Positions 36,383-53,558 of a DNA stretch of 64,000 nt are shown piece after piece (positions within the stretch are counted from its first letter, which is position 1; each line of letters opens with the position of its first letter). Below the pieces are notes generated by a model that saw only the letters and a program-made list of their open reading frames with translations, was not told the DNA's origin and did not search any database. This DNA comes from Bacteroidia bacterium (GTDB lineage: Bacteria; Bacteroidota; Bacteroidia; NS11-12g; UBA955): the NCBI GenBank assembly GCA_044377005.1, contig JBILJV010000004.1:7698-71697 (forward strand), written 5' to 3'. A program made the position numbers and the translations under genes.

Positions 36383-36910
36383 ATGAAATTAAGAATATTA
36401 TTATTTGTCATTTTTACAGCATTTACTTCTAGTCAGTTAGTGGCTCAAAAGTTTGGATACGTAGATACAGATTACATATTGTCACAAATGACTGAGTTTA
36501 AAGCGGCTCAAAAGCAACTTGATGAAGCCTCTCAAAAATGGGAACTAGAAATTAAATCATTTCAAGGCGAAATAGATAAAATGTATAAAGAATACAAGTC
36601 GGAAGAAATTATGTTAAGCCCTTCACAAAGAGAAGAAAGGGAAAATGCGATAGTAAAAAAAGAGGAATCTTTGAGAGAGTTTGAACAGGATAAATTTGGT
36701 GTAAATGGTCAACTATTCAAAAAAAGACAAGAATTAATAAAACCTATCCAAAGTAAAATATCAGAAGCTATTCTAAAAGTAGCCAAAAATAATGGTCTAG
36801 ATTTTATTTTCGACAAATCTGCCAATATGAATATTTTATATAGTAATATAAAGTATGATAGAAGTGGGGATGTTTTAGATGAGTTAGGTGTAGTTCCAAA
36901 TAAAGATTAA
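36383..36910 (+). CDS. OmpH/Skp family periplasmic chaperone
   Basis: Signal peptide, KFGYVDTDYILSQM start of the mature protein, and a long coiled-coil arm. Confidence 0.8.
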   Translation: MKLRILLFVIFTAFTSSQLVAQKFGYVDTDYILSQMTEFKAAQKQLDEASQKWELEIKSFQGEIDKMYKEYKSEEIMLSPSQREERENAIVKKEESLREFEQDKFGVNGQLFKKRQELIKPIQSKISEAILKVAKNNGLDFIFDKSANMNILYSNIKYDRSGDVLDELGVVPNKD

Positions 36911-36924
36911 TTTAAAAAAGTACA

Positions 36925-37503
36925 ATGAAAAATAATATATTAAAATCCCTGTCGTTAGTTGCGTTATTGTTTGTTTTTAGCCAAACTAATGCTCAAAAAG
37001 TTGGTCATTTAAATTTCCAAAAAGTTATTGAATTATTGCCGGAGTTCCAAACCGCTTCAGATGAATACCAATTATTCCAAGCTTCATTAGAGGACGAATT
37101 AACTCAAATTGAAGTTGAAGCAAAAAAAACACAAAGCTTAATTGAATTGGAACAAAAAAAGCCTCAACCAAGTGCCCCAAGATTAAAGCTTTTGGCCCAA
37201 AAAATGGAAAAATATCAAGTTAGTTATCAAGAATTAAGTCAAACAATTCAAGAAAGTTTGAAAGAAAAATACAATGAACTTATAGATCCCTTGAAAGAAA
37301 AGGTATCTAAAGCTGTAGCAGAAGTTGCAAAGGAAAATGGATATACTCATGTCATTGACAATACTTTTGGTACTTTAATCTATGCGGATGAAAAGTTTGA
37401 TTTAGAGACTTTAGTAAAAACTAAATTAAATATTAAAGACAAACCAGTTGTTCCAGCTACCAATGCACCTGGAGCTATTAATGGGATGGGAACAGGTAGA
37501 TAG
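36925..37503 (+). CDS. OmpH/Skp family periplasmic chaperone (second paralogue)
   Basis: Signal peptide, KVGHLNFQKVIELLPE, coiled-coil arm, and a P/G-rich tail. Confidence 0.8.
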   Translation: MKNNILKSLSLVALLFVFSQTNAQKVGHLNFQKVIELLPEFQTASDEYQLFQASLEDELTQIEVEAKKTQSLIELEQKKPQPSAPRLKLLAQKMEKYQVSYQELSQTIQESLKEKYNELIDPLKEKVSKAVAEVAKENGYTHVIDNTFGTLIYADEKFDLETLVKTKLNIKDKPVVPATNAPGAINGMGTGR

Positions 37504-37520
37504 TTTATTTAAGCTCTAAT

Positions 37521-38345
37521 TTGGATTCAAATTATTCCATTGGTGTTTTTGATTCTGGAGTTGGAGGACTCACTGTTTTTGAAGAAATAGTGAATGCCTT
37601 ACCTCAATATAATTTTATTTATTTAGGAGACAATGCACGAGTACCTTATGGTACTCGTTCTTTTGATACTGTTTACCAATACACACTTGAAGGGGTAACT
37701 AAGTTACATGAATTAGGATGTAGGTTAATAGTTATTGCTTGTAATACTGCATCTGCGAAAGCTTTAAGAACCATACAACAAAATGATTTGTTGAAATTTG
37801 ATCAACCATTTAAGGTGCTTGGTGTTATAAGACCTACCACTGAAGAAATTGGTGGTTTGACAAAAACTAACAAGGTTGGTGTTTTGGCAACCCCTGGAAC
37901 TGTTAATTCACTCTCTTATGTTATAGAACTTAATAAATTATATCCTCAAATTCAGGTTTTTCAAGAAGCTTGTCCTATGTGGGTGCCATTAATTGAAAAT
38001 AATGATTTTAATAACGAGGGGGGGCTGTTTTTTATAAAAAAGAACATACAAAACCTGTTGTCTCAAAGTCATGAAATTGATACAATTGTCCTCGGTTGTA
38101 CTCATTATCCATTGATAATAGATATTATAAAACAAAATATACCAAGTCATATTAAAGTAGTTTCCCAAGGAAACATTGTTGCCAATAGTCTTAAAGATTA
38201 CCTAGTAAGACACAAAGAAATTGAAATAATTTTACAAAAAGAAGGTAAAAGGTTGTTTCTAACAACAGAAGAACCAAGTTTATTTGACGAAAAGGCAAAA
38301 TTATTTGTTAAAAGCCAGATAAATAGTCAGATGGTTGAAATTTAA
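37521..38345 (+). CDS. murI: glutamate racemase
   Basis: Contains GVFDSGVGGLTV, VIACNTASA (Cys 1) and LGCTHYPL (Cys 2). TTG start. Confidence 0.93.
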   Translation: MDSNYSIGVFDSGVGGLTVFEEIVNALPQYNFIYLGDNARVPYGTRSFDTVYQYTLEGVTKLHELGCRLIVIACNTASAKALRTIQQNDLLKFDQPFKVLGVIRPTTEEIGGLTKTNKVGVLATPGTVNSLSYVIELNKLYPQIQVFQEACPMWVPLIENNDFNNEGGLFFIKKNIQNLLSQSHEIDTIVLGCTHYPLIIDIIKQNIPSHIKVVSQGNIVANSLKDYLVRHKEIEIILQKEGKRLFLTTEEPSLFDEKAKLFVKSQINSQMVEI

Positions 38346-38561: not shown

Positions 38562-39515
38562 ATGATACAAAAAACTAAAATATCGATTATTGATGATTTT
38601 CACCCTGTCTTTTTACAACAACTTAATCCATATTTTGAAGTAGATTATCAGCCATCTATTGAAAAAAAAGACATCTTAAGCCAAGTATACAACTCCGAAA
38701 TAATCGCAGTAAGAAGTAAAATTAATTTTGATGAATCTATTATTAAATTATTGCCTAATTTAAAATGTATTGCGCGAGGGGGGGCAGGAATGGATAATAT
38801 TGATGAGGAATATGCATGCAAAAGAGGAATTATTCTTTTAAATGCACCTGAAGGAAATAGAAATACAGTTGCAGAACATTGTATAGGATTGCTCATTGGA
38901 TTAAGCAAGAATATAGTTAAAGGACATCAGAATGTAGTTGACTTAAATTGGGACAGAGAAGGTAATAGGGGTTGGGAAATTAAAGGGAAAAAAATAGGAA
39001 TTATAGGATATGGAAATACTGGATCATCTTTTGCCAGAAAATTATCTGGATTCGATTGCGAGGTTTTGGTTTACGACAAATATAAGTCCGTAAAATCAAA
39101 TGGTTATATTAAAAATGTCGATTTGGAAACGTTGAAAAAAGAAAGTGATGTAATAAGTTTACATATTCCTTTGACAAAAGAAACCAATCAAATGATTGAT
39201 CTTTTATTTATAGAAGGCTTAAAACAAGGAGTTGTTTTGATAAATACGAGTAGAGGAAATGTCGTAAATCAAGCTTCTGTATTAAATTGGATAAAAAGTG
39301 GAAAAATAAAACAGTATGCTACAGACGTACTTGAAAATGAAAATTTAAAGTCATTTACAGCCTATGAAATGGATTTATTTAAAAGTTTGTTAGCTACAAA
39401 TCAGGTGATTATAACTCCGCATGTTGCTGGTTGGAGTCATGAAAGCTATTTTAATATTGCGGATGTATTGTCGAAAAAACTGATTCATTTTTCGTTAAGC
39501 ACAAAAAAAAATTAG
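38562..39515 (+). CDS. D-isomer-specific 2-hydroxyacid dehydrogenase (phosphoglycerate-dehydrogenase-like)
   Basis: GIIGYGNTGSSFARKL NAD-binding fold, NTSRG, and HVAGWS catalytic His context. Confidence 0.85.
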   Translation: MIQKTKISIIDDFHPVFLQQLNPYFEVDYQPSIEKKDILSQVYNSEIIAVRSKINFDESIIKLLPNLKCIARGGAGMDNIDEEYACKRGIILLNAPEGNRNTVAEHCIGLLIGLSKNIVKGHQNVVDLNWDREGNRGWEIKGKKIGIIGYGNTGSSFARKLSGFDCEVLVYDKYKSVKSNGYIKNVDLETLKKESDVISLHIPLTKETNQMIDLLFIEGLKQGVVLINTSRGNVVNQASVLNWIKSGKIKQYATDVLENENLKSFTAYEMDLFKSLLATNQVIITPHVAGWSHESYFNIADVLSKKLIHFSLSTKKN

Positions 39516-39594
39516 TTAAAAGTTGAAATAAAGAAAAAAAACTATGAAATTGCCTCGCTTTTTGAGATTAAAAAATTGTTATTTTAAAATAAAT

Positions 39595-42500
39595 ATGAAG
39601 AATAAGTTTACTATCCAATCCCTGTTAATGTTTTTTATGACATTTGGATTTGCCATGATGATGAATGCGCAAACAAACATGGGTTTTATCAGGGGCGTTG
39701 TCGAAAAGAACAATGAACCAATGTCTAACGCAATTATTGTGTTGAAAAATTCAAATGGTGAGGAAATTAAGAAAGTTAGAACTGAAAAAAATGGGTCTTT
39801 TACTTTCATTAACCTTGAGCCAGGATTGTACAATATGAAAATTGAAGGAGATGGCATCCGTTTTGAATCCAAAGAAATTGACGACATTAATGTTACGACA
39901 GAAGGTAAGGTGCTTACACTTGAAGTTGAAGAAAAAGTTGTTCAAGTAGGTCAAGGAGAAAAAACCAAAAAAACAGACAAACAACAAAAAACCAAATTGG
40001 AACAAACTTCAACAACTGCAACAGTTAGTGGAGACCAAATACAACAAACAGGTTTTAGAGGTGCAACTTCAATGGCTCAGTTCCAGTCCGGTGTAACAAA
40101 CACCAGAGGTGGATTGAGTGGTAGAGGTGCTCGTACAGATGGAACAGCTGTTTTCGTTGATGGTGTTCGTGTTAACAACTCAAACATTAACCAAGGGATG
40201 AATGGTCAAGTTGACATTATGCAAGCGGGTATTCCTGCGCAATATGGTGACTTTACAGGATTGGGAATTTCAATTACCACTAAAGGAGGTGTTTCTTCAC
40301 GTAAAGTTGGAAGTTTTGAAGCTCGTTCAACTAGTATGTTCAATGCTTACCATCACAATTTGTTTGAAGCATTTTACGCTACACCAATTTTATGGAAAGA
40401 AAATCCAAGATACAAAACAGGAGAAAGTGATGTAAAGCGTATTCCAATTGCTGCTGTAAATTTATCTGGAAACTTTAATTACAATAGAGAACCAAGTCCA
40501 TCATACATTGGTTATTATGTAATTAAAGATGATCGTTTAGCTGAAATTGAAAGAAATCCTTTAAGAGTTAATACAGATGGAGGTTTGGTTCACAATGCAA
40601 ACTATTTAAATGAAAATGATTATGATAATGTTAAAGTGAGACCAAATGTTTATTCATTATCATCTTCTGCGCAAGCAAAATTCGATTTTAGATTGTCTGA
40701 TTTAGCAACCTTAACAGCTTTTGGTAACTTTGTTTATTCTAAGGGCGTAAATGGAGGTAATAATATAATGGCTTACAAAGACAATCCATTAAGCACTAAT
40801 TTATATACTTTAGGTTATGTCAAATACACACAAAACTTTAAAGGTCCAGACTCAGCTAGAAAGGCAGATAATGTGACATTAAATAACACTTATTTTACGG
40901 TTCGTTTTGACTACCAATCTACTTGGGCTAAAAACATGGACAACATTCACAGAGATGATATTTTTAGTTACGGATACATTGGAAGATTTGTTCATTACCC
41001 AACTGAATTTTTCAGTTACTATGGTAATTTAAATAATCCAAATGCACCTGCAAGAAAATTAGTAGACCAAAATGGAGATACTGTGTATTTAAGAAATTTT
41101 TGGGAACAAACTGGATATAGAGATACCTCAATTAAATTCCAACAAGCGAATATTAATACTGTAAGAGGAAATTATACCAATGCATTATTTAATAGATTTA
41201 ATGAATTAGGTGCAAATGTTACATTTGACCAACAAATTTTACAACAACAAGGTTTGTTAAATGGTTACAATCCAAACAATATTTATTCATTGTGGAATTC
41301 TCCAGGTACACAATTGTCTGGTTATGGAAAATCACAAAGAGAAACTTACACTTTCTTTGCTATGGGTGAAACTGAAGTTAAAGGTCCTCAAAATAGCAGT
41401 AAAAAAGCTTCATCAGGTCATAAACTGCAATTTGGTTTAACCTATGAGCAAAACGTAACTAGAGCATTCTCTGTTGGAGCAAATAATTTATGGAGATTAA
41501 TGTATCAATATGCGAATAGTCACATTGCAGAACTTGATAGAAAAAATCCAATTTTATCATACGATGCAAATGGCGTTTTCCAAGACACAGTTAGGTACAA
41601 TCGTTTGGTGAATAAAGAGGCTCAATCACAATTTGATAGAGAATTTAGACAAAGTTTAATCAATAAAAATGCGAAAGATGTTTATGGAAATCCAATAACA
41701 GAAACTACTTTCCTAGATATCAATTCTTATGCACCATCTGATTTTAAACTATCTATGTTTAGTGCTGACGAATTATTGAACAATGGTAGTGGAGTTGTTT
41801 CATATTATGGCTATGACCATTTAGGAAATAAATTAAGAGGAAGACCGAGTGTAAACGACTTTTTAGATGATAAAAACAAACGTTCAATTGGAGCATTCAA
41901 TCCTATTTATACAGCTGCATGGTTCCAAGATCAATTCTTCTTTAAAGATTTAGAATTTAGACTTGGTTTAAGATTAGAGCGTTATGATGCAAACCAATTG
42001 GTGTTAAAAGATCCATATTCATTATATCCAATTCAACAAAAAGGTGAAGTGAAAGAATTAGATGGTAATGTGATCACTCACCCAGAAAATATTGGAGATG
42101 ATTATGCAGTTTATGTTGATGATGTAAACAATCCAAGAAAAATATTAGGTTACAGAAAAGACAATAACTGGTACGACGAAAATGGAACTTTATTGTCTTC
42201 TCCTGATTTAATTGCTAATAGAACCAATAATGGTAAAGTTGCTCCATTGTTAGTTGATCCAACTAGACAAGAAGTAACAAGGGAGTCATTCAAAGATTTT
42301 CAACCTAAAGTAAATATTTTACCACGTATTTTCTTCAAATTCCCATTAAATCCTAAAAGTTTATTCTTTGCAAGTTATGACGTATTGGCTCAAAGACCAG
42401 GCGCAAACTTTGCAACTATTGATGACTATGTTTTCTTAACACAAAAAGCAACTAACTCATTAAACAACCCTGCTTTAGGATCACGTATTACTACAGATTA

Positions 42501-43398
42501 TCAAATTGGTTTTAAACAACAATTGTCTCCAACAACATTATTTGGATTCACTTCATACTATAGAGAAACTAAAAATGATATTTCTGCATTCCAATTTAAC
42601 AATGCATATCCTATTACTTACATCAGTTTCAATAACTTAGATTTTAGTACTGTAAAAGGATTGATTTTAGAGGTAGATTACAAAGCTCAAAACAATATGA
42701 GTTTAGGTGGTAACTACACATTGCAATTTGCTGATGGAACAGGTTCTAATATTAACTCACAAAGAGCCTTAATCGCTAGTAACCAACCAAATTTAAGAAG
42801 TTTGTTCCCTATGGGAGAGTTAGATATTCGTCATCAATTTAAAGGCGTCTTTAACTGGTCATTTTTTGATGGCAAAGGAACAACTCCAAAAGAAAGAGCT
42901 AAACGTAAATATTTAGGACCAGTAATTGGAAAAACAAAAGTATTAAGTAATACAAATATTAACTTAACATTTACCGCAGTTTCTGGTTTACCATACACTG
43001 CAACATTACAACCCGTTCAATTGGGTTCTGCCAACCGTTCTCCAATAAAAGGAACTCCATTCGGGTCAAGATTACCATGGCAATTTAACTCAAACTTAAA
43101 TATTCAAAAAGATGTGCCATTATCTTGGACAAATAAAGAAGGTAAGAAAAAAGGAGCTAGTTTGCAAGTGTACTTATTTGTAACGAATTTGTTAAATACA
43201 AGAAACGTATTCTCGGTTAACACTTACACAGGTTCTGCTGAAGATGATGGATTCTTAAATTCACCTCAAGGACAACAAGCATTACAAAATCAATTAAACG
43301 CAGCAGCATATACATTCTATTACAATGCATCTGTTAATAGTCCTTTCAATTACCAAGCTCCTAGAATGATGTATTTAGGAACTAGATTTATGTTTTAA
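39595..43398 (+). CDS. oversized TonB-dependent-receptor-like outer-membrane protein with N-terminal CarboxypepD_reg-like domain
   Basis: Signal peptide MKNKFTIQSLLMFFMTFGFAMMMNAQ (the track start at 39544 is less likely). Beta-sandwich GFIRGVV..GSFTFINLEPGLYNMKI, plug-like LSGRGARTDGTAVFVDGVRV...GIPAQYGDFTGLGISITTKGG, then about 1000 aa of barrel ending YLGTRFMF. Confidence 0.7.
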   Translation: MKNKFTIQSLLMFFMTFGFAMMMNAQTNMGFIRGVVEKNNEPMSNAIIVLKNSNGEEIKKVRTEKNGSFTFINLEPGLYNMKIEGDGIRFESKEIDDINVTTEGKVLTLEVEEKVVQVGQGEKTKKTDKQQKTKLEQTSTTATVSGDQIQQTGFRGATSMAQFQSGVTNTRGGLSGRGARTDGTAVFVDGVRVNNSNINQGMNGQVDIMQAGIPAQYGDFTGLGISITTKGGVSSRKVGSFEARSTSMFNAYHHNLFEAFYATPILWKENPRYKTGESDVKRIPIAAVNLSGNFNYNREPSPSYIGYYVIKDDRLAEIERNPLRVNTDGGLVHNANYLNENDYDNVKVRPNVYSLSSSAQAKFDFRLSDLATLTAFGNFVYSKGVNGGNNIMAYKDNPLSTNLYTLGYVKYTQNFKGPDSARKADNVTLNNTYFTVRFDYQSTWAKNMDNIHRDDIFSYGYIGRFVHYPTEFFSYYGNLNNPNAPARKLVDQNGDTVYLRNFWEQTGYRDTSIKFQQANINTVRGNYTNALFNRFNELGANVTFDQQILQQQGLLNGYNPNNIYSLWNSPGTQLSGYGKSQRETYTFFAMGETEVKGPQNSSKKASSGHKLQFGLTYEQNVTRAFSVGANNLWRLMYQYANSHIAELDRKNPILSYDANGVFQDTVRYNRLVNKEAQSQFDREFRQSLINKNAKDVYGNPITETTFLDINSYAPSDFKLSMFSADELLNNGSGVVSYYGYDHLGNKLRGRPSVNDFLDDKNKRSIGAFNPIYTAAWFQDQFFFKDLEFRLGLRLERYDANQLVLKDPYSLYPIQQKGEVKELDGNVITHPENIGDDYAVYVDDVNNPRKILGYRKDNNWYDENGTLLSSPDLIANRTNNGKVAPLLVDPTRQEVTRESFKDFQPKVNILPRIFFKFPLNPKSLFFASYDVLAQRPGANFATIDDYVFLTQKATNSLNNPALGSRITTDYQIGFKQQLSPTTLFGFTSYYRETKNDISAFQFNNAYPITYISFNNLDFSTVKGLILEVDYKAQNNMSLGGNYTLQFADGTGSNINSQRALIASNQPNLRSLFPMGELDIRHQFKGVFNWSFFDGKGTTPKERAKRKYLGPVIGKTKVLSNTNINLTFTAVSGLPYTATLQPVQLGSANRSPIKGTPFGSRLPWQFNSNLNIQKDVPLSWTNKEGKKKGASLQVYLFVTNLLNTRNVFSVNTYTGSAEDDGFLNSPQGQQALQNQLNAAAYTFYYNASVNSPFNYQAPRMMYLGTRFMF

Positions 43399-43421
43399 TT
43401 AAAAAAGAAAAAAAAGTTATT

Positions 43422-46400
43422 ATGAAAAGTGTTTTTATAAAATTAAAAGTTGTGGCCGTATTAATGTCTGTTTCGCAGATATTATCGGGGGCTGAAATTA
43501 AAAATTTCAATTCAACGACCAATGGAAACGGTCATTCACAAAAAAATAGCAATGGTTTTGCTGAATTTGCAAACAATTGTAAAGCCGCTTCACAAAGTGC
43601 AGATTTAGATGTTAACAATGTTAGAACCCGTATTTTAAACGGAGGAGACATGTGGTGGGATTTAAACAACCCTAAATATGAAATACCTAAAGTGTCTGAT
43701 GCAAATAGTGTTAGAAAACACTCTTTGTTTGCTGGTGCTTTATGGATAGGTGGATTAGGTAGAGGTGATGGTAATTTAAGAATGGCTGCTATGACTTACA
43801 GACAAAGAGGAAACGATTTTTGGCCAGGTACCTTAGACCAAAGTTCTGTAAGTACTGATGCATCTCGTTGTGAATCTTGGGACAAAATGTTTAAAGTAAC
43901 CAGAGATGAGTTGTTGAGACAACAAACTTCAGGATTTACAGATTTATCAAAAGGGATTTTAGAATGGCCAGCTTATGGTAATCCTAATATTCCGTTTGCA
44001 ACGAATCAAACAACAGATTTAGCTCCTTTCTTTGATTTAGATGGAGATGGTTTTTATGACCCAACTAAAGGTGATTATCCAATTTTAGATCCTACCAGAG
44101 ACAATGATAAAAACTTACCGAAAGATCAACCAGATCAAATGATTTGGTTTGTATATAATGATAGAGGAAATGTTCACTCTGAAACAGGTGGTATCCCAAT
44201 TGGTTTGGAAATCCAAACAACAGCTTTTGCTTTCCAAACAAATGATGAAGTAAATAATATGACATTCTACCGATCTAAAGTAGTTAATAGAGGTTTTGAG
44301 GCTTTAGATAAAACATATTTTGGTCAATGGGTGGATGCGGATTTAGGAAATTATGCCGATGATTATGTTGGATGTGATGTAGGTAGAAGTTTAGGCTATT
44401 GCTATAACGGTGATGACAATGACGAGGGTGTACTTGGATATGGTTTAAATCCTCCTAGTATCGGTGTCGATTTCTTTGAAGGTCCATTGGATTCAGCAGG
44501 AAACGAACTTGGAATGGGTGCTTTTGTTTATTATGACAATAACTTTAATCCGGTAAATGGTAATCCTAATAACGCTATTGATTTTTACAATTACTTACAA
44601 GGTAATTGGATGAATGCTGTTTGTATGAAATATGGTGGAAACGGAGTAAACGGAACCGTTTGTACTAAATACATGTTTGATAATGGTACAAATACAGCAA
44701 CTGCAACTTTACCAGCATGGACAGAAAAATCTTCAGGTAATCAACCAGCAGACAGACGTTTCTTACAATCAGCAGGACCATTTACTTTGTTTAATGGTGC
44801 CGTTAACTATGTAACAGTAGGTGTTGTTTGGGCAAGAGCAACATCAGGTGGAGCAACAGGGTCACTTAGTTTGTTAAAATTGGCAAGTGATAAAGCTCAA
44901 CAATTGTTTAATAATAAATTCGATTTACCTGATGGTCCAGAACCACCGGCTGTAGAAGTTCAAGAATTAAACAATGAACTAGTTATGAAATTGTTCAATA
45001 CAGATTTGCCTGAAAACTATTTTGAAGCAATCAAAAATGAATTAGGTCAAACGATTGAATACAAATTCCAAGGTTATTTGTTATACCAATTGAAAGATGG
45101 TACTGTTTCAAATACAGAATTAGACAACATAGAAAGAGCAAGATTAATTTACCAATGCGATGTAAAAGATGGTATTTCTTCATTAATTAATAGAGAATTT
45201 GATGCTTCTGTATCTGCTAAAATCCCTAAATTAAAAGTTGATGGCTTAAACCAAGGAGTTCAAAGAACATTAAGTATCAAAGAAGATGCATTTGCTTCAG
45301 GTTCAAACAAAACGCTTGTAAATTTTAAAAACTATTATTATCTAATGGTGGCTTATGGATATCCTTCTAATGACCCAAATAAAGAAGAAGATGTTCAATT
45401 CTTGCCTGGAAGAAATACAGCTAAATTTACAGCTTATCCAAGAAATACTTCACCAGAAAATGGTGGAAGTATGCAGCAAGCATTATATGGAGATGGTCCT
45501 ATTTTGAAACAAATAAATGGTCAAGGTAATGGGGGGCAAATTATAGAATTTAGCAAAGAGACTATTGATGCTATTTTAAGTAGTTCAACCAACAAGGTAG
45601 ATGAGCCTGTTTATTTAGGAGGAAGAGGTCCTGTAAATATTAAAGTTGTAGATCCAATGAAAGTGCCTAACGCTAATTTTGAATTTAGATTTATAGAACC
45701 TAGAGAGGTAAGAGTAAATTCAAGAGGTACTGGTTCAAATAAATATCAAGATTCAATCGCTGCAGGAAGTTATTGGATGCTAATAAACACAACTTCTAAT
45801 GATACTGTTTACTCTGAAGGAACTATTGCTACAAAAATAGAAACTATTCAAGGAAGAGACTCAATAGCAGGTGGCAAAAAGAACGGTCCAAAAGTTAAAT
45901 TAACCAATAGTTTAAAAGATTGGGGATTGGCTGTTGAGATTGTTCAAGTACCAAGCCCAGGTAGAAATCCATACGGGGAACCTTCTAATGGATTTTTGAA
46001 TTATACTGTCAAATTTGCTGACGAAAATAAACAATGGTTAACAGCAGTATTTGATGTAGATGGAGATAATTCTCCATTGAACTGGATTCGTTCAGGTACA
46101 AATGGCTTATCAGCAACATTCGATTCATATTCACATGATTTTAATGCTGATTTTGATCCAAACCATACAGGAAATGATTCTTATGACCCTTATGAAGTTT
46201 TTGAAAAAATATGGGATGGTAGAATAGCTCCATACGCACTAACAGCTAGAGCTTTAGGTCCAAAACCTTCAGGAACAGGTGCTGGTACTATATTATATAG
46301 CCCTGCATTTGCAAACTCCACAGTTGCTGATAACCCAATGACTGAATTGGCAAGTATTAAACTTGTATTAACCCCTGATGTAAGAAAATGGACTCGTTGT

Positions 46401-47366
46401 GTAGTTGTTGAAATGGGAGAAGACGTTGTATTAACACAAGGTTCAACCCCTAAGTTTAACCTAAGAGCTGCTAATTCTAAAAAACCTATTTACAATAATT
46501 CAGATGGTAGCTTGATCCGTTGGGAAGAAGATCCTTCAGAAACAGGAAGAAGTTATTTCCCTGGATATGCGGTGAATTTAGAAACTGGTGAAAGATTAAA
46601 TATCATCTTTGGAGAAGATTCTTACGTTCCTTCTGAAAATGGTAATGATATGATTTGGAATCCTACAAGTGTTCAGTCTAATGGAACTTATGTATCATTT
46701 GGAGGTAAACATTTTATCTACGTAATGGGAAGTTACCAAGGGATGAATACCAGAGGATATAGAGGTCCAATCTATGATGAAGGTGTTGAATATAAGAATT
46801 TATTAACTTCAGGTGGTTTCGACAAAAGAAGAGTATTCTCTCAAGCTATGTGGGTTATTCCTGCTTTAGCAGAAAGAGGGTACAATCTGAAAAATGGTGT
46901 TCCTCCAACTCAAGTTGATATTTCAATTAACATGAGAAAACCATTCACTAAGAAAGCATCAGAAATTGGCGATTCAACTAAATTGCCAGGTTACACATTC
47001 TCAACTGAAAGTATTTTCAATAATATCAATGAAACTACAGGTAAAAATGCAGTTAATATGATCAATATTGTACCTAATCCATATTATGCAACCTCTGCAT
47101 ACGAATCAAGTGCAATTGATTCACGTGTTAAAATCACTAATCTTCCACCTAAAGCAACTATTTCTGTATATACATTAAATGGCGCTTTGGTTAGAAGAAT
47201 TAAAAAAGATGACAATGAAACATTTGTTGATTGGGATTTGAAAAATAATAATAGAGTGCCAATAGCAAGTGGATTTTATATCATTCACGTTGATTGTGGT
47301 GATTTAGGAGAAAAAATATTAAAATGGTATGGCGTTATGCGTCAATTAGATTTGGATACATATTAA
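43422..47366 (+). CDS. 1314-aa secreted protein of unknown family with T9SS-CTD-like C-terminal domain
   Basis: N-terminal signal-like segment. DxDGDG-type motifs (FFDLDGDGFYDP at nt 44034-44051; VFDVDGDNSP). The last ~100 aa, NIVPNPYYATS...ISVYTLNGALVRRI...ASGFYIIHVD...KILKWYGVMRQLDLDTY, resemble a type-A CTD. There is a 23-nt gap to the upstream gene. Confidence 0.6.
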   Translation: MKSVFIKLKVVAVLMSVSQILSGAEIKNFNSTTNGNGHSQKNSNGFAEFANNCKAASQSADLDVNNVRTRILNGGDMWWDLNNPKYEIPKVSDANSVRKHSLFAGALWIGGLGRGDGNLRMAAMTYRQRGNDFWPGTLDQSSVSTDASRCESWDKMFKVTRDELLRQQTSGFTDLSKGILEWPAYGNPNIPFATNQTTDLAPFFDLDGDGFYDPTKGDYPILDPTRDNDKNLPKDQPDQMIWFVYNDRGNVHSETGGIPIGLEIQTTAFAFQTNDEVNNMTFYRSKVVNRGFEALDKTYFGQWVDADLGNYADDYVGCDVGRSLGYCYNGDDNDEGVLGYGLNPPSIGVDFFEGPLDSAGNELGMGAFVYYDNNFNPVNGNPNNAIDFYNYLQGNWMNAVCMKYGGNGVNGTVCTKYMFDNGTNTATATLPAWTEKSSGNQPADRRFLQSAGPFTLFNGAVNYVTVGVVWARATSGGATGSLSLLKLASDKAQQLFNNKFDLPDGPEPPAVEVQELNNELVMKLFNTDLPENYFEAIKNELGQTIEYKFQGYLLYQLKDGTVSNTELDNIERARLIYQCDVKDGISSLINREFDASVSAKIPKLKVDGLNQGVQRTLSIKEDAFASGSNKTLVNFKNYYYLMVAYGYPSNDPNKEEDVQFLPGRNTAKFTAYPRNTSPENGGSMQQALYGDGPILKQINGQGNGGQIIEFSKETIDAILSSSTNKVDEPVYLGGRGPVNIKVVDPMKVPNANFEFRFIEPREVRVNSRGTGSNKYQDSIAAGSYWMLINTTSNDTVYSEGTIATKIETIQGRDSIAGGKKNGPKVKLTNSLKDWGLAVEIVQVPSPGRNPYGEPSNGFLNYTVKFADENKQWLTAVFDVDGDNSPLNWIRSGTNGLSATFDSYSHDFNADFDPNHTGNDSYDPYEVFEKIWDGRIAPYALTARALGPKPSGTGAGTILYSPAFANSTVADNPMTELASIKLVLTPDVRKWTRCVVVEMGEDVVLTQGSTPKFNLRAANSKKPIYNNSDGSLIRWEEDPSETGRSYFPGYAVNLETGERLNIIFGEDSYVPSENGNDMIWNPTSVQSNGTYVSFGGKHFIYVMGSYQGMNTRGYRGPIYDEGVEYKNLLTSGGFDKRRVFSQAMWVIPALAERGYNLKNGVPPTQVDISINMRKPFTKKASEIGDSTKLPGYTFSTESIFNNINETTGKNAVNMINIVPNPYYATSAYESSAIDSRVKITNLPPKATISVYTLNGALVRRIKKDDNETFVDWDLKNNNRVPIASGFYIIHVDCGDLGEKILKWYGVMRQLDLDTY

Positions 47367-47390
47367 TCAATAATTATAGAAATTTTAAGA

Positions 47391-48530
47391 ATGAAAAAAA
47401 TAGTTTTAGCATTAAGCATCGCCTTTACTTGTTTACAAGTCAATGCTCAAATAAGTGACGGTCCTGCAAGAGCAGGTCAATATGGATTTACTCAATTATT
47501 GGTTAATGGATGGGGAAGTTCAAGTGGAATGGGAAACGCATATTCATCAGGGGTATCTGGTGTAGAATCGTTTTACTTAAACATAGCTGGTTTAGGTAAA
47601 GTAACAAACACTGAAATCGCATTCAGTCGTACTTCTTGGTTAGGTGGAACTGGTATTAATATCAATACTTTTGGATTTGGTCAAAAAGTTGGAGAAGGTG
47701 TTGTCGGTATTAGCGTTCAGTCTTTTGCAATTGGTCAAATTCCAATTACAACAGTGGATCAACCGGATGGAGGAATAGGAACATACAAACCTTCAATCAG
47801 TAATGTAAATTTAGCATACGCCCACAATTTCTCAGAGAGAATTTCTGCAGGCTTGAATGTGAAAATAGCAAGTGAGTCAACTCCAGATGTTAGAGTTGGT
47901 GCAATGGCATTTGATGCTGGGTTACAATATGCTGACCAATTTTTAAGAGGAAAAGCAGTGAAATATCAAAATCCTGAAATGAATCCAGCTGCAGCTAGAG
48001 GAAGTGACATAAGATTTGGTGTAAGTATCAAAAATTTAGGAACAGATGTTAGACACACTGGAGATGGATTGGCTGCAAAGTCAAACATAAATGGCAAAGA
48101 GTTTACTTCAACTACTTCCCAAAGAGCTGATAAGGTATCATTACCTTCACAAATTAATATCGGTTTAGCTTATGATTTTAGATTAGATAAAGATGAAAAA
48201 ACATACTGGAATCGTTTAACAGCTGCTTTGAATTTTACGAATAATGTGGCTATGGCGAATCAAACTTCTTTAGGTTTAGAATATGCTTACAAAGAAATAT
48301 GGTTGTTAAGAGGTGGATTTAATTATGAAAAAGGTGTCTTTAATTACGAAACTAGAAATAATGCCTACACTGGTTTAAATTTAGGAACATCTATTCAAAT
48401 CCCTCTTATTAAGAAAAATGAAAAAGGTTTCCGCACGAAATCAGATGCACTTGCAATTGATTACTCATACAGAGCAACTAGACCTTTTACAGGAACTCAT
48501 ACTTTTGGTTTAAGAATCAAACTTGATTAA
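47391..48530 (+). CDS. PorV/PorQ-family-like (FadL-type) outer-membrane barrel
   Basis: 379 aa with a signal peptide ...LQVNAQ. The N-terminal G-rich segment SSSGMGNAYSSGVSGVESFYLNIAGLG parallels the GMGDAGVA...NPA motif of PorV/PorQ. The rest has a beta-barrel pattern. There is a 24-nt gap to the upstream gene. Confidence 0.55.
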   Translation: MKKIVLALSIAFTCLQVNAQISDGPARAGQYGFTQLLVNGWGSSSGMGNAYSSGVSGVESFYLNIAGLGKVTNTEIAFSRTSWLGGTGININTFGFGQKVGEGVVGISVQSFAIGQIPITTVDQPDGGIGTYKPSISNVNLAYAHNFSERISAGLNVKIASESTPDVRVGAMAFDAGLQYADQFLRGKAVKYQNPEMNPAAARGSDIRFGVSIKNLGTDVRHTGDGLAAKSNINGKEFTSTTSQRADKVSLPSQINIGLAYDFRLDKDEKTYWNRLTAALNFTNNVAMANQTSLGLEYAYKEIWLLRGGFNYEKGVFNYETRNNAYTGLNLGTSIQIPLIKKNEKGFRTKSDALAIDYSYRATRPFTGTHTFGLRIKLD

Positions 48531-48546
48531 TTAACAAAAAAAATAG

Positions 48547-48554
48547 TATTTTTG
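48547..48554 (+). promoter_or_regulatory. -7 box TAttTTTG upstream of greA, abutting the preceding terminator stem
   Basis: Exact TAnnTTTG match 56 nt before the greA ATG. Confidence 0.35.
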
Positions 48555-48555
48555 C

Positions 48556-48591
48556 ACAAGTGCTTTCATATAGAGAGCACTTGTTTTTTTT
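48556..48591 (+). terminator. intrinsic terminator closing the three-gene outer-membrane operon
   Basis: ACAAGTGCT-ttcatatagag-AGCACTTGT is a 9-bp stem followed by a run of 7 T. Confidence 0.7.
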
Positions 48592-48609: not shown

Positions 48610-49083
48610 ATGTCAGACATAGTATACTTAACCAAAGAAGGTTACGATAATTTAAAAAAAGAAATTGATGAACTTAAAAAAGTTCAAAGACCTGCTATTA
48701 GTGCACAAATTGCTGAGGCAAGGGACAAAGGGGATTTGTCTGAAAATGCAGAATATGATGCAGCTAAAGAAGCTCAAGGTTTGTTAGAAGCTAAAATTGC
48801 AAACCTTGAAACTATGTTTTCCAAAGCAAGGATTATTGATGAATCAAAATTAGATAATTCAAAAGTTAACTTGTTAAGTAAAGTTAAAGTAAAAAACTTA
48901 AATGCCAATCGAGAAATGTTATACATGATTGTTTCTGAAAAAGAAGCAGATATGAAATTGGGTAAAATATCTAGTAAATCAGCAATTGGAGCTGGCTTAA
49001 TAGGAAAAGCACAAGGTGATATTGTGGAAATTCAAGTGCCTGCAGGAATTGTAAAATTAGAAATTTTGTCAATTAGTTTATAA
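48610..49083 (+). CDS. greA: transcription elongation factor GreA
   Basis: Contains YLTKEGYDNLKKEIDELK...ARDKGDLSENAEYDAAKEAQG; 157 aa. Confidence 0.95.
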   Translation: MSDIVYLTKEGYDNLKKEIDELKKVQRPAISAQIAEARDKGDLSENAEYDAAKEAQGLLEAKIANLETMFSKARIIDESKLDNSKVNLLSKVKVKNLNANREMLYMIVSEKEADMKLGKISSKSAIGAGLIGKAQGDIVEIQVPAGIVKLEILSISL

Positions 49084-49090
49084 AGCGAGA

Positions 49091-49483
49091 ATGTCAACCA
49101 TTTTTGATAAAATCATTAACAAAGAAATTCCATGTTTTAAAATACATGAAAATGATGATTTTATGGCATTCTTAGATGTTAATCCAATTGCTATTGGACA
49201 TACTTTAGTGATCCCCAAAAATCCACAAGATTATATTTTTGATTTATCGGATAGTGATTTTATGGCTTTTCATTTGTATTCAAAAAAAATAGCTTCTGCT
49301 CTAAAAAAAACCATAAACTGTAAAAAAATAGGAGTGGCTGTTATAGGTCTTGAAGTGCCACACGCTCACATTCATTTAGTACCCATGAATCATGTAGGTG
49401 ACCTTAATTTTACTGGAGAAAGATTAGTATTGTCAAATATTCAGTATGAAGATATTTGCAAACAAATTTTATCGAATCTTTAA
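49091..49483 (+). CDS. HIT family (histidine triad) nucleotide hydrolase
   Basis: FLDVNPIAIGHTLVIPK and the histidine triad HAHIHLVP. Confidence 0.9.
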   Translation: MSTIFDKIINKEIPCFKIHENDDFMAFLDVNPIAIGHTLVIPKNPQDYIFDLSDSDFMAFHLYSKKIASALKKTINCKKIGVAVIGLEVPHAHIHLVPMNHVGDLNFTGERLVLSNIQYEDICKQILSNL

Positions 49484-49562: not shown

Positions 49563-51974
49563 ATGAAGTGGTTAATTTTCGTTGTAGTTTTTTTTAGTGT
49601 GTTTATTACTAATGCGCAACGCTATACTATAAAAGGCCTAGTCAATAATTCTGCAGGAGAGCCTGTTGCATATGTTAATGTGTCTATATTGGATATGCCA
49701 AGTATGGGAACTACTACCAATTTAAAAGGAGAATATACATTTAAATTGGAAGAAGGAAGCTATACCTTAGTATATGATATTATAGGGTATAAAACTTTGA
49801 AATATCCTATAATTGTGAATAAAAATGCGATCATCAGTTCTGTTATTATTGAACAGGATGAAACTGAGTTTGTAGGCGTTAAAGTATCAATGAAAAAAGT
49901 TGATCGTTCTGAGGAAATCATTAGACAGGTTATTGCTAATAAATTAAAATATTTATATACCACAAGCTATTCAAATGAGGCTTATATTAAAGCGACTTTA
50001 GTAAATGAATTCGCAGTGAGTAAAAATGATACTTTAGATTCATTGTCAACCCCGAATCTTACTATGGCAGAAATTCATTTGAAAACCTTTTTTTCGACAC
50101 CCAATAAAATCAAAGAGGAAAGAAAGGCTGTAGTTTTAAGAGGCAATACCCAAGATTTGTTTTATTTGAGTCATACAGAAGGAGATTTTAATTTTTATAA
50201 GAATTTAATTCAAGTGCCTGCATTAAGTGAGTCACCTCTACTATCCCCCATTTCAAACAGTGGGCTTGTTGCTTATAAGTATAAATGGATGGGTGTTTTC
50301 TATGAAAATAATATTAAGTATTACAGAATAAAAGTAAGTCCGGGATTGTTAGGGAATGCACTCTTTAGCGGTGAATTAGTAATTCAAGACAGTACATGGT
50401 CAATAAAGTCATTAAGCTTGGTCGCGCCCAAGTATCACACACCTGAATATGATTTTTTTGAAGTCAATCAAACCTATGGTTTTGAATTAGGAAAGTATCA
50501 TTTAACAAGACAAGAATTTAATTATCAAACAGGAACCAAAAAAAAACACACAAATGGAAAAACTATAGTAGTTTACTCAAATTTCGAAGATTCAGTAATA
50601 CTGAACAAACGGTTTTTTAATAATGAGTTAAGTTCAACAGCAAAAGAAGCATATGAAAAAGATTCACTCTATTGGCAAGGCATTCGTAAGGAACCCTACT
50701 CGTCATTAGAGATAGCTTTTATACGTAAATCAGACAGTTTGATTGCCTTAAAATCTCAGAAGTTTTGGCAAGACTCAGTTGATGCTGTTTTTAATAAAAT
50801 TACTTTAAAAAAATTATTCTTATTTGGCCAAGGCAATTACGATAGAAGTAATGAACGAACATGGTCTTTTAAACCTTTAGTTTTTGTATATCAGCCATTA
50901 TATATTGCTGGTCCTAGGGTAGATTATTGGGTTGCGTATAACAAAGAAAATAAAAATAAGAAAGAGTTTAATGCATTTGTTCGGGCCAATATGGGAACTA
51001 TTAACAAAGATTTAAAAGGTAATATTTCATTAACAAGGTTATATAACCCATTTAAAAGAGCCTCCTATTCCATGAGTATAGGAAGTGATTTTGGAATTAT
51101 TAACCCCTTTGAATCTTGGATTAGATTGTTTTCAAGAGCAAACTTTTATGTACATGATTTTGTTAGTTTTTCTCATCGTAAGGAAATTATAAACGGATTG
51201 TATGTGAGATTGGGAACTGAATTTTCAAATAGAAGGTCTGTGAGTAATTTAACATTTGATTCAAGAGGCGATAGTTTATGGGGAGGTAATACTGATATTA
51301 TTGATTTTAGTTATTACAAAGCAATGTATTTTTCGACATTTATAAGTTATGTTCCATTTCAGAAATATGTACGGGAACCTTATCAAAAGTTAATATTAGG
51401 TTCGGCTTGGCCTGAGTTATTTTTGAGTTATCGAAAGGGCGTTCCATACTTAGGAAGTGTTGTAGATTTTGATTATATGGAATTTGGAATTGAACACGAT
51501 TTAAAAGTAGGCTTGTTGGGTAATACCAAATATAGATTTGTAAGTGGAGAATTTCTTCAATCCAAAGATTTAAGAATAGTTGATTATAAATTTCAACGCA
51601 GAGCAGGTCCTATATTTTTTACCAATCCATTGTTTTCATTTCAAGGGATAGATAGCACATACAATACCTTAAAACGCTTTTATGAATTCCATTATTTACA
51701 CCGTTTTAACGGAGCATTAATAAACAAATTGCCATTACTGAAAAAGTTAAATGTCATAGAAGTAGCTGGTGCAGGTTTTTTATATACCCAAGAAAGAAAA
51801 TTTAGATATGTAGAAGGTTTTGTAGGAATAGAAAAAATTATACGTTTTTGGAATGAACGATTTAAGTTAGGTGTTTTTTTGGTAGCAGCTCAAAGTAATT
51901 TATACACATACAGACCTCAATTAAAATTTACAATTGAAGCTTATGATAAAGTGCGAAATAAATGGCCATACTAA
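49563..51974 (+). CDS. CarboxypepD_reg-like domain protein with large uncharacterised C-terminal region (DUF5686-like)
   Basis: Signal peptide, YTIKGLVNNSAGEPVAYVNVSILD...GEYTFKLEEGSYTLV beta-sandwich, then about 700 aa with no motif I can assign. Confidence 0.5.
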   Translation: MKWLIFVVVFFSVFITNAQRYTIKGLVNNSAGEPVAYVNVSILDMPSMGTTTNLKGEYTFKLEEGSYTLVYDIIGYKTLKYPIIVNKNAIISSVIIEQDETEFVGVKVSMKKVDRSEEIIRQVIANKLKYLYTTSYSNEAYIKATLVNEFAVSKNDTLDSLSTPNLTMAEIHLKTFFSTPNKIKEERKAVVLRGNTQDLFYLSHTEGDFNFYKNLIQVPALSESPLLSPISNSGLVAYKYKWMGVFYENNIKYYRIKVSPGLLGNALFSGELVIQDSTWSIKSLSLVAPKYHTPEYDFFEVNQTYGFELGKYHLTRQEFNYQTGTKKKHTNGKTIVVYSNFEDSVILNKRFFNNELSSTAKEAYEKDSLYWQGIRKEPYSSLEIAFIRKSDSLIALKSQKFWQDSVDAVFNKITLKKLFLFGQGNYDRSNERTWSFKPLVFVYQPLYIAGPRVDYWVAYNKENKNKKEFNAFVRANMGTINKDLKGNISLTRLYNPFKRASYSMSIGSDFGIINPFESWIRLFSRANFYVHDFVSFSHRKEIINGLYVRLGTEFSNRRSVSNLTFDSRGDSLWGGNTDIIDFSYYKAMYFSTFISYVPFQKYVREPYQKLILGSAWPELFLSYRKGVPYLGSVVDFDYMEFGIEHDLKVGLLGNTKYRFVSGEFLQSKDLRIVDYKFQRRAGPIFFTNPLFSFQGIDSTYNTLKRFYEFHYLHRFNGALINKLPLLKKLNVIEVAGAGFLYTQERKFRYVEGFVGIEKIIRFWNERFKLGVFLVAAQSNLYTYRPQLKFTIEAYDKVRNKWPY

Positions 51975-52910: not shown

Positions 52911-53558
52911 TTAATCAAAATTTTTAATTTTAAAAAGTTCAAAGTTATTATCGTATAAAACCGATATGACATTCATATTTATAAGCTTGATTAAACTTCT
53001 TATAATTGTTCTTTTTTTGAAGGGTAGCTTGCTAAGTAAATAATTTAGCTTAATAGGTCCATTTTTACGCATTATTTGCATGATTTCCGATTCAAAAAAG
53101 CCATAAGTGTTTTTGCCTATGTTTTGAGTTTTGTTATTAAATTTAAGCCATTCATAAGTAACAATGCCTGCTTTGAACGTGTGATCCTCTTGTCTGATAT
53201 ATACAATTTTATTTTTTCCCGCATCTAAAGCGAATACAGGTTTTTCGGGAATTTCTTCAATATTAACCTCTAAGATAATTTTTTTATCAATGGAGTGCTC
53301 CTTAAATTTTAATTCTACAGGGGGAACACAATAAAGTTGTGCTGCCAATTCAATCATGTATTTTTCTTCCTCTGATTTAACACCTGCAATGGTTTTATTA
53401 TCCCTTACACCCACTAATAATGTACCTCCTTTGGTATTGGCAAATGCACAAATTGTTTTGGCGATTTTATAAGCATCAGAAATGGTGTGTTTAAAATCAA
53501 GATGAAGTCCTTCTCCATTAAAAATTAATTGATTGATATGATTTAAGTTTTTTATCAA
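52911..53558 (-). CDS. AlbA_2 (Schlafen-type) DNA-binding domain protein with C-terminal winged-helix-like region
   Basis: GEGLHLDFKHTISDAYKIAKTICAFANTKGGTLLVGVRDNKTIAGV matches the AlbA_2 core motif (E..FK....i.AfANt.GG.l.iGv.D.g.i.G). Confidence 0.55.
   Translation of the reverse strand: MIKNLNHINQLIFNGEGLHLDFKHTISDAYKIAKTICAFANTKGGTLLVGVRDNKTIAGVKSEEEKYMIELAAQLYCVPPVELKFKEHSIDKKIILEVNIEEIPEKPVFALDAGKNKIVYIRQEDHTFKAGIVTYEWLKFNNKTQNIGKNTYGFFESEIMQIMRKNGPIKLNYLLSKLPFKKRTIIRSLIKLINMNVISVLYDNNFELFKIKNFD

Follow-up and report, generated by a model that had tools for sequence, protein, structure and literature searches.

We analyzed a 64,000-nt stretch of DNA from a Bacteroidia bacterium (GTDB lineage Bacteroidota; Bacteroidia; NS11-12g; UBA955; assembly GCA_044377005.1, contig JBILJV010000004.1, forward-strand positions 7,698 to 71,697), referred to below as the window, and describe three adjacent plus-strand open reading frames (ORFs) within it. 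ORF1 encodes a TonB-dependent transporter, ORF2 a 1314-amino-acid (aa) secreted protein whose C-terminal domain (CTD) resembles a type IX secretion system (T9SS) sorting domain of type A, and ORF3 an outer membrane barrel of the PorV/PorQ family. This parts list is nearly certain, and the trio as a whole looks like an undescribed surface machine that is common in uncultured aquatic Bacteroidota.

Organization of the locus

In the ORF listing, the three frames lie at 39544-43398, 43422-47366 and 47391-48530 and are separated by exactly 23 and 24 nt, as an earlier sequence-only reading of this DNA had reported. The mechanical frame of ORF1 comprises 1284 aa from 39544. We place its likely start at M18 (39595), because translation from there begins with a typical signal peptide and because the homologs are 1262-1272 aa long; the resulting 1267 aa agree with the length of about 1270 aa given previously.

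Between ORF3 and the next gene, greA, lies a hairpin (48556-48584) with a 12-pair stem and a 5-nt loop, followed by seven T residues (48585-48591). Its centroid energy of -17.3 kcal/mol (z = -5.4) was equaled by none of 200 shuffled sequences. The terminator scan as a whole was not enriched (4 sites found, 5.4 expected), and the strength is thus a property of this single hairpin alone. The sequence-only reading had described a strong terminator with a 9-bp stem that closes one ~9 kb transcription unit. The strong hairpin and its T tract are confirmed, with a stem of 12 rather than 9 pairs, and both the tight gene spacing and the terminator after ORF3 agree with a single unit, but the upstream boundary is a different matter. 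A D-2-hydroxyacid dehydrogenase gene on the same strand (38562-39515) ends 79 nt before the ORF1 start (28 nt before the upstream ATG), and the terminator scan found no terminator-like site between the two genes; the single unit is therefore putative at its 5′ end. An Rfam scan of the window returned only two tRNAs and no riboswitch or other RNA that would reveal a substrate. A foreign origin of the region was rejected, as its G+C content is flat at 30-35%.

Table 1. Features of the trio, with positions counted from the first letter of the window
Feature	Position	Strand	Evidence
ORF1, TonB-dependent transporter, 1267 aa from probable start	39595..43398	+	AlphaFold2 (AF2) model, Foldseek, Pfam matches of homologs
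ORF1 signal peptide MKNKFTIQSLLMFFMTFGFAMMMNAQ	39595..39672	+	sequence inspection and homolog alignment
ORF1 N-terminal CarboxypepD_reg beta-sandwich	39691..39903	+	PF13620, 36.7 bits (cut-off 32.3)
ORF1 possible TonB box VEEKVVQVG, then K/Q/T-rich linker	39925..40026	+	homolog alignment
ORF1 plug domain	39994..40329	+	PF07715, 22.8 bits (cut-off 23.9); motifs; AF2 model
ORF1 beta-barrel, ~22 long strands	40354..43395	+	DSSP on AF2 model
ORF1 five long barrel insertions	40486-40650, 41146-41322, 41476-41904, 41989-42309, 43186-43365	+	DSSP on AF2 model
ORF2, secreted 1314-aa member of a large family without a name	43422..47366	+	homolog searches, AF2 model
ORF2 Sec signal peptide MKSVFIKLKVVAVLMSVSQILSGA, no lipobox cysteine	43422-43493	+	sequence inspection
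ORF2 N-terminal region with best-conserved blocks	43578..44936	+	column identity
ORF2 invariant Asp-rich stretch WVDADLGNYADDYVGCD...YNGDDNDEG	44328-44435	+	family alignment
ORF2 type A-like T9SS CTD	47037..47363	+	TIGR04183, CTD part of PorZ model
ORF2 7-residue C-terminal tail QLDLDTY	47343..47363	+	motif x-x-D-[LFY]-D-x-[FY]-COOH
ORF3, PorV/PorQ-family outer membrane barrel, distinct subfamily	47391..48530	+	NF033709, PDB profile match
ORF3 signal peptide	47391-47450	+
Intrinsic-terminator-like hairpin and T7 closing the unit	48556..48591	+	fold energy versus shuffles

ORF1 is predicted to be a genuine TonB-dependent transporter

By its predicted structure, ORF1 is a genuine TonB-dependent transporter with a 22-strand barrel and an N-terminal plug. 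The AF2 model of residues 150-1284 (mean confidence score pLDDT 88.3; predicted template modeling score, pTM, 0.83) has about 22 long strands with the plug inside the barrel. Foldseek matched this model to PfeA, PirA, PhuR, FhuA and XusA (E about 1e-24, up to 1e-22; target-normalized template modeling (TM) scores of 0.65-0.76), and the 50 best matches listed, BtuB included, are all TonB-dependent transporters (E down to 8e-25, target-normalized TM scores of 0.52-0.76). The plug motifs SGRGARTDGTAVFVDGVRV and GIPAQYGDFTG are visible in the protein, the CarboxypepD_reg domain scores above its Pfam cut-off, and the K/Q/T-rich linker occupies residues 138-161. These results agree with what had been proposed from the letters: a large TonB receptor-like barrel with a signal peptide, a CarboxypepD_reg-like beta-sandwich, a K/Q/T-rich linker and a plug-like segment.

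In sequence searches with the window protein, no Pfam barrel family, PF00593 included, matched at E <= 0.01, NCBIfam returned no match whatsoever, and a PDB sequence search with the single ORF1 sequence found nothing; homologs at 34-38% identity carry precomputed Pfam Plug and TonB_dep_Rec_b-barrel matches. We rejected an assignment of ORF1 to SusC/RagA, since no family model matched and since a SusD-like gene was found neither in the window neighborhood nor in the related loci with called genes listed; the CarboxypepD_reg domain is all that ORF1 and SusC/RagA have in common. The sequence-only reading had likewise set its proposed module apart from SusC/SusD.

Two further features of ORF1 bear on its function. 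The five insertions lie between strands and add ~424 aa beyond a normal transporter, and their conservation (0.51-0.61) equals that of the strands (0.56) and the plug (0.57). Exposed loops are not usually conserved to the level of the membrane core, and the pattern would suit a conserved interface. Ahead of the plug, distant homologs carry a TonB-box-like motif, E-V-x-V-V-x-[AY]; at the aligned position the window protein is hydrophilic and K/Q/T-rich, with a hydrophobic run (KVVQVG), a possible shifted TonB box, a few residues upstream.

ORF2 represents a large unnamed protein family

The sequence-only reading had called ORF2 an orphan, and this we reject. A word-indexed search returned more than 6,283 relatives, with full-length identity still at 50% at rank 120, and phmmer with core residues 46-1215 matched 7,359 clusters (defined at 50% identity) at E <= 1e-3 and 2,466 at E <= 1e-30. 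In public records these relatives are named only 'hypothetical' or 'T9SS type A sorting domain-containing protein'. The 1,150-aa core matched nothing in Pfam or NCBIfam, either for the window protein or for 36 relatives, and neither the family profile (0 matches at E <= 10) nor the single sequence matched any PDB sequence. The AF2 model of ORF2 (pLDDT 82.8, pTM 0.67) is mostly beta and multi-domain, and its comparison with a viral structure library gave nothing useful. ORF2 thus stands among the larger conserved protein families that have neither a Pfam model nor a structural relative.

Conservation within ORF2 is highest in three blocks (residues 53-160, 236-360 and 431-505), where column identity reaches 0.78-0.83 as against 0.63 overall. 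The middle block contains the invariant Asp-rich stretch, which is probably a metal-binding loop; AF2 confidence is below 50 at model residues 264-293, which cover most of the stretch. The longest relatives carry extra inserts of Ig/cadherin-like and BNR (propeller) type only, which are uninformative.

We also rejected an identification of ORF2 as PorU or PorZ, as there was no Peptidase_C25 match and no propeller match, and only the CTD aligns. The E-values of the PorZ and PorU models against ORF2 fall far short of what an equivalog needs, the PorZ match of the window protein is confined to the CTD, and the 50 best ORF2 fold matches listed include neither a PorU nor a PorZ chain. No end-to-end match to PorU or to any other named family emerged from Pfam, NCBIfam, the PDB profile search or the fold search. 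An apparent ORF1-ORF2 fusion of 2,574 aa (P0526, in the cluster of P0435) was set aside as an assembly or frameshift artefact, because in it the frame, instead of stopping where ORF1 normally ends, runs on across the spacer and into the signal peptide of ORF2.

ORF3 forms a distinct PorV/PorQ subfamily

ORF3 scored 106.3 bits against NF033709, the PorV/PorQ family model (cut-off 90), in line with the resemblance to PorV/PorQ barrels seen at first reading. All 44 relatives examined match the same model at E <= 0.001 with the same pattern as the window protein. A PDB sequence search with the single ORF3 sequence found nothing, and with the family profile the sole significant match was Flavobacterium johnsoniae PorV (6h3i_F, E 2.5e-14), to whose N-terminal half ORF3 is 23% identical. 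ORF3 is not a canonical PorV, PorQ or PorV2, as its scores of 52.8, 44.6 and 27.5 bits lie far below the respective equivalog cut-offs of 250, 220 and 325. An identification as BamG was rejected as well: the BamG model matched one of the 44 relatives, weakly (E 7.5e-6), and the PDB profile search returned no BAM chain. TIGR03519 matched five of the 44, again weakly. On these profile scores, ORF3 is a distinct subfamily within the PorV/PorQ family.

A type A-like C-terminal domain and a seven-residue tail mark ORF2

The resemblance of the last ~100 aa of ORF2 to a type A CTD, noted in the sequence-only reading, extends across the family: TIGR04183 matched 33 of the 36 members and PF18962 19 of them. 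The CTD part of the PorZ model matched 28 of the 36, with a best E-value (3.3e-9) better than that of TIGR04183, and the PorU model matched six. PNPY, GxY and K-W motifs are seen in the domain. Searched alone against PDB sequences, the CTD gave spurious matches only, such as adiponectin.

Compared domain by domain, no part of the trio is better conserved than the CTD with its tail. The conservation of the CTD is 0.74 as against 0.63 for the entire ORF2, and its mean pairwise distance (0.50) is close to that of the neighboring GreA (0.47), the distances of the ORF2 core, ORF3 and ORF1 being 0.66, 0.81 and 0.83, respectively. Such conservation would not be expected of a signal that is cleaved off and discarded.

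In nearly all family members in hand, the last strand of the CTD (...KW[YF]G[VI]M[RH]) is followed by seven residues of the pattern x-x-D-[LFY]-D-x-[FY]. This tail is present in all 74 related loci in which the ORF2 C-terminus lies on the contig, and in eight of eight more distant trio-linked genes, one of them with a variant sequence. It is absent from all three informative paralogs that lack adjacent partner genes. P0384 (locus L083) has a canonical-looking end without the tail and no transporter or PorV-like neighbor; P0387 (L088) stands alone, is tail-less and has a regular Por_Secre_tail match. P0343 (L090), a tail-less protein of 1369 aa ending in ...KWCGYIGE, lies 7 kb downstream of a complete trio, after GreA-HIT-RuvC, so that one genome (L090, 1-12110) carries both a trio ORF2 ending in ...RPIDLDTF and a tail-less paralog. 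For a fourth tail-less gene (L089), the contig is too short for its neighbors to be judged. Ahead of the stand-alone paralog of L083 (7138-9831) are genes for a B12-binding radical SAM protein and for a fatty-acid desaturase. The association between the tail and the partner genes is suggestive of an ORF2 C-terminus and partners that belong together, and the tail is the most specific evidence that ties the two.

The trio is conserved as a unit

A scan of a genome collection returned 78 loci, all from Bacteroidota metagenome-assembled genomes (MAGs), several of them with clearly wrong taxon labels. The gene immediately upstream of ORF2 encodes an ORF1 homolog in 73 of the 78, the other five loci starting inside or at ORF2, and the gene immediately downstream encodes an ORF3 homolog in 74, the other four ending before ORF3. 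The trio is thus complete wherever the contig permits, at ORF2 identities down to 42%, and its order recurs in eight further loci (L079, L080, L081, L084, L085, L086, L087 and L090) whose outer flanks differ. The co-localization in related genomes on which the sequence-only reading depended is therefore found, and it was also seen in seven of eight more distant genomes examined. Among the further loci named above, L081 belongs to the marine MED-G17 group, and the ORF2 of L084 carries a BNR insert. L079 (2258-9969, from a 3.79-Mb genome) has two ORF1-like transporters in tandem (1228 and 1230 aa) ahead of its one ORF2/ORF3 pair, which suggests that the transporter can diversify while ORF2 and ORF3 stay single. 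No cultured carrier is among the named sources (MAGs and 'Cryomorphaceae bacterium'), model organisms lying outside the scan. The labels Chitinophaga pinensis, Rhizobium, Bifidobacterium, Sphingomonadales and Oscillatoria on P0531 and on L003, L031, L040, L043, L050 and other loci very likely reflect mis-binned or mislabeled MAGs.

The dehydrogenase gene upstream and the GreA and HIT genes downstream are also mostly syntenic with the trio, and the resulting six-gene block (in the window, 38562-39515 and 48610-49483 on either side of the trio) stays together in most carriers, for example L079, L081, L084, L086 and L087. Beyond the block, the flanks vary among Skp/MurI, UvrC, ATP synthase and KsgA. 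The dehydrogenase gene is missing from L080 and L085 and GreA-HIT from L084, and each of these loci nevertheless keeps a complete trio.

Pairwise-distance matrices are more tightly correlated within the trio (r = 0.92-0.975; partial r 0.84-0.95 when controlling for the neighbors) than between the trio and GreA (0.81-0.88), HIT (0.60-0.66) or the dehydrogenase (0.46-0.50), a pattern that is consistent with co-evolution of the three proteins and that is confounded by protein length and shared phylogeny. The 109-aa CTD alone gave a correlation of 0.92.

T9SS cargo and other genes in the window

The window encodes two further T9SS cargo proteins, one with a type A signal (16950-19676, +) and one with a type B signal (26753-29290, -), and the organism thus uses both T9SS signal classes. 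The former combines four Ig_7 domains and a PKD domain with its type A tail; the latter carries a PKD domain along with a CHU_C tail of type B. The 64 kb of the window contain no core T9SS genes.

Three other regions deserve mention. At 29329-32280 (-), beside ruvA, lies a gene for a 983-aa protein whose PMT_2 glycosyltransferase-like and C-terminal TPR matches are weak, reaching the Pfam cut-offs or falling slightly short of them. The genes at 36383-38345 (+) encode two OmpH/Skp proteins and a glutamate-racemase-like protein; in Bacteroidota this group usually follows bamA, and here it is preceded by queA and a Ham1-family gene, with bamA not adjacent. A 215-aa Schlafen AlbA_2 protein is encoded at 52911-53558 (-), between a DUF6089 protein and an M16 peptidase.

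Comparison with described systems

In the Porphyromonas gingivalis attachment complex, PorU and PorZ retain their CTDs, through which they are attached to PorV and PorQ, respectively, so that in each pair a PorV-family 14-strand barrel holds a surface protein exported by the T9SS (PMC10202324). The trio resembles these pairs in the match of most ORF2 CTDs to the CTD part of the PorZ model and in the family membership of ORF3. It differs from them in that neither the PorZ propellers nor the PorU C25 domain is related to the core of ORF2, that ORF3 scores below the equivalog cut-offs, that ORF2-ORF3 always occurs with a TonB-dependent transporter gene, and that the ORF2 CTD has an extra seven-residue tail. 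A related arrangement is known for BamG-BamH, in which a FadL-family 14-strand barrel holds a surface protein through extracellular loops (PMC12578637, PMC12611786). However, the BamG model matched a single ORF3 relative, and ORF2, unlike BamH, is not a lipoprotein.

A study of T9SS cargo and shuttles (PMC12618676) describes type B cargo genes as often adjoining genes for PorP/SprF-like shuttles, with two tested cargos depending on their cognate shuttle, and type A cargo as thought to be handled entirely by the general PorV. The SprB-SprF pair of F. johnsoniae, as presented there, resembles ORF2-ORF3 in that a cargo gene adjoins the gene for its own specialized barrel, which sets the destination of the cargo. 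Unlike SprB-SprF, the ORF2 CTD is type A-like rather than type B, and ORF3 is PorV/PorQ-like rather than PorP/SprF-like, TIGR03519 matching only five of 44 relatives.

With SusC/SusD and XusA-XusB, ORF1 shares a plugged 22-strand barrel, a CarboxypepD_reg-type N-terminal domain and a gene position beside a surface-exposed partner; XusA-XusB (PDB 9gbc), a Bacteroidota transporter with a surface partner, is among the ORF1 fold matches. Unlike the partners in those systems, ORF2 is a 140-kDa T9SS-type protein and not a lipoprotein, and a third gene encodes a putative anchor. Unlike such pairs, the trio lies in a housekeeping setting with no adjacent regulator. Receptor-type barrels have also been tied to secretion: PG0534 of P. 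gingivalis, a TonB-dependent-receptor-like protein of 92 kDa, is essential for the T9SS in a role that is unknown (PMC5445135), and Oar, a TonB-dependent transporter of Myxococcus xanthus, is needed for the protease PopC to be secreted (PMC6434023). We liken ORF1 to both by description rather than by sequence comparison, and at about 140 kDa it is much larger than PG0534. As a separate observation, the window encodes an 803-aa protein at 49563-51974 (+), with CarbopepD_reg_2 and DUF5686 (431 bits) domains and no NCBIfam name; only in the window and its closest relatives is it found downstream of HIT. In size it is near PG0534, and its architecture may be similar.

A full-text literature search found no description of the trio. 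Each of its parts is of a known kind, and the combination matches no described system, be it SusC/SusD, PorU/V/Z/Q, SprB/SprF or BamG/H.

A model for the trio

Drawing on the retained CTDs of PorU and PorZ, the pairing of type B cargo with shuttles, and known transporters with surface partners, we propose the following mechanism. ORF2 would be exported by the T9SS and, whereas the CTD of ordinary cargo is cut off, would keep its CTD together with the seven-residue tail of the family. Through the CTD it would stay on ORF3, a dedicated PorV/PorQ paralog, much as PorZ stays on PorQ and PorU on PorV, and would thereby be held on the cell surface in contact with ORF1. Its beta-sandwich core, probably metal-stabilized, may capture or process an extracellular ligand, for which a glycan or another polymer is our guess, and hand it to ORF1 for import powered by TonB. 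We put the probability of this whole chain, from T9SS export and CTD retention through ORF3 anchoring and ligand capture to TonB-powered import, at roughly 45%, and regard the pairing of ORF2 with ORF3, taken by itself, as somewhat better than an even bet. The sequence-only reading had proposed much the same module, a T9SS cargo parked on a dedicated barrel beside a TonB gate. Its three parts and their conserved co-localization have held up, the orphan status of ORF2 has not, adjacency alone is weak evidence, and the 5′ boundary of the unit, the export, the contacts and the transport are putative.

A more daring proposal, which we hold only tentatively and consider rather doubtful, is that the tail is a previously unrecognized retention or sorting signal that would divert a type A-like cargo from PorV/PorU cleavage to a dedicated PorV paralog and so build a T9SS-supplied transporter partner.

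Several observations weigh against the proposed mechanism. Two domain assignments of the window proteins fall just short of their cut-offs, namely the TIGR04183 match of ORF2 (22.1 bits, cut-off 23) and the Pfam Plug match of ORF1 (22.8 bits, cut-off 23.9), and ORF1 has no clear TonB box where distant homologs carry one. The fold matches of ORF2 are weak (TM scores of 0.15-0.22) and fall on beta-supersandwich domains of glycoside phosphorylases/hydrolases such as GH94 and GH116, and near the trio there is no regulator, riboswitch or enzyme that hints at a substrate. As the stand-alone paralogs show, the core of ORF2 does not need the partners in order to work and is not simply a lid of the transporter. 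As for the genomic evidence, adjacency alone argues weakly because the housekeeping neighbors are nearly as syntenic, the tail comparison comprises three informative tail-less genes that were chosen because they are tail-less, and the distance correlations are confounded as noted above.

Alternative explanations

The likeness of the ORF2 CTD to the CTDs of PorZ and, in some relatives, PorU, together with the place of ORF3 in the PorV/PorQ family, could also mean that the trio is accessory T9SS or attachment machinery, in which ORF2-ORF3 does in this lineage what PorZ-PorQ or PorU-PorV does elsewhere, sorting or attaching other cargo, and ORF1 is a receptor-like barrel required for secretion, as PG0534 is. 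The housekeeping setting without a regulator and the enzyme-like conservation of ORF2 would suit such a role. We consider it unlikely, however, as the ORF2 core has no sequence or fold likeness to the PorZ propellers or the PorU C25 domain, the tail-less paralogs look like ordinary cargo, ORF1 is half again the mass of its supposed counterpart (about 140 kDa versus 92 kDa), the carriers found are all uncultured, and the T9SS literature searched describes no such component.

It is also unlikely, in our judgment, that ORF2 is a structural surface protein, whether a coat, an adhesin or a part of a motility track, that is anchored by ORF3 without any transport, ORF1 being a second anchor or an unrelated neighbor. 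A large, beta-rich, multi-domain protein with Ig/cadherin-like or BNR propeller inserts in some relatives could well play such a part, clues to a substrate are absent, and genes for type B CTD adhesins are described as often adjoining PorP/SprF-like shuttle genes (PMC12618676). Yet ORF2 is more conserved than its partners and close to the housekeeping level, which is unusual for exposed coats and adhesins, and ORF1 never leaves the trio in the 78 related and eight further trio-containing loci. Moreover, the plug and barrel of ORF1 are complete and conserved, and a TonB-box-like motif persists in its homologs, which points to energized transport.

That the three genes are neighbors by descent only, so that nothing but inheritance links a standard transporter, a standard T9SS cargo and a surplus PorV paralog, appears improbable. 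The dehydrogenase-trio-GreA-HIT block is syntenic in most loci although its flanking genes are functionally unrelated to the trio, and synteny could therefore reflect inheritance alone. But the trio persists where the flanks change (L080, L084 and L085), its genes are 23 and 24 nt apart with one terminator, the tail co-occurs with the partner genes even in a contrast within one genome, and the distance correlations are much tighter inside the trio than with the neighbors.

Finally, an outward-working, Oar-like ORF1 that exports ORF2 or its product, with the CTD serving for anchoring only, finds a precedent in the requirement of Oar for protein secretion and in the PF13620 CarboxypepD_reg domain of ORF1, a domain type that we take Oar to share, but is highly improbable, as ORF2 has a T9SS signal of its own in a window that encodes ordinary T9SS cargo, a 22-strand barrel would not be expected to let a protein of about 140 kDa through, and ORF1 matches no Pfam barrel family at E <= 0.01 although Pfam includes an Oar-like one, which should count against a relationship with Oar.

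Implications

If the proposed mechanism is right, the trio would join two kinds of systems that have so far been described as separate, TonB transporters that work with surface partners and PorV-family barrels that hold T9SS cargo. Both are central to feeding and to the building of the cell surface in Bacteroidota. A type A-like cargo with a tail and a barrel of its own would, if true, be an exception to the rule that type A cargo is handled by the general PorV, and a partner delivered by the T9SS would be a third route, after SusD-like and other surface lipoproteins, by which a transporter acquires its surface partner, one used in thousands of uncultured aquatic lineages. With the C-terminal tail as a simple marker in the sequence, further pairs of this kind can be sought. 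As the carriers include abundant freshwater and marine Flavobacteriales-like lineages, the substrate of the trio could matter for aquatic carbon turnover.

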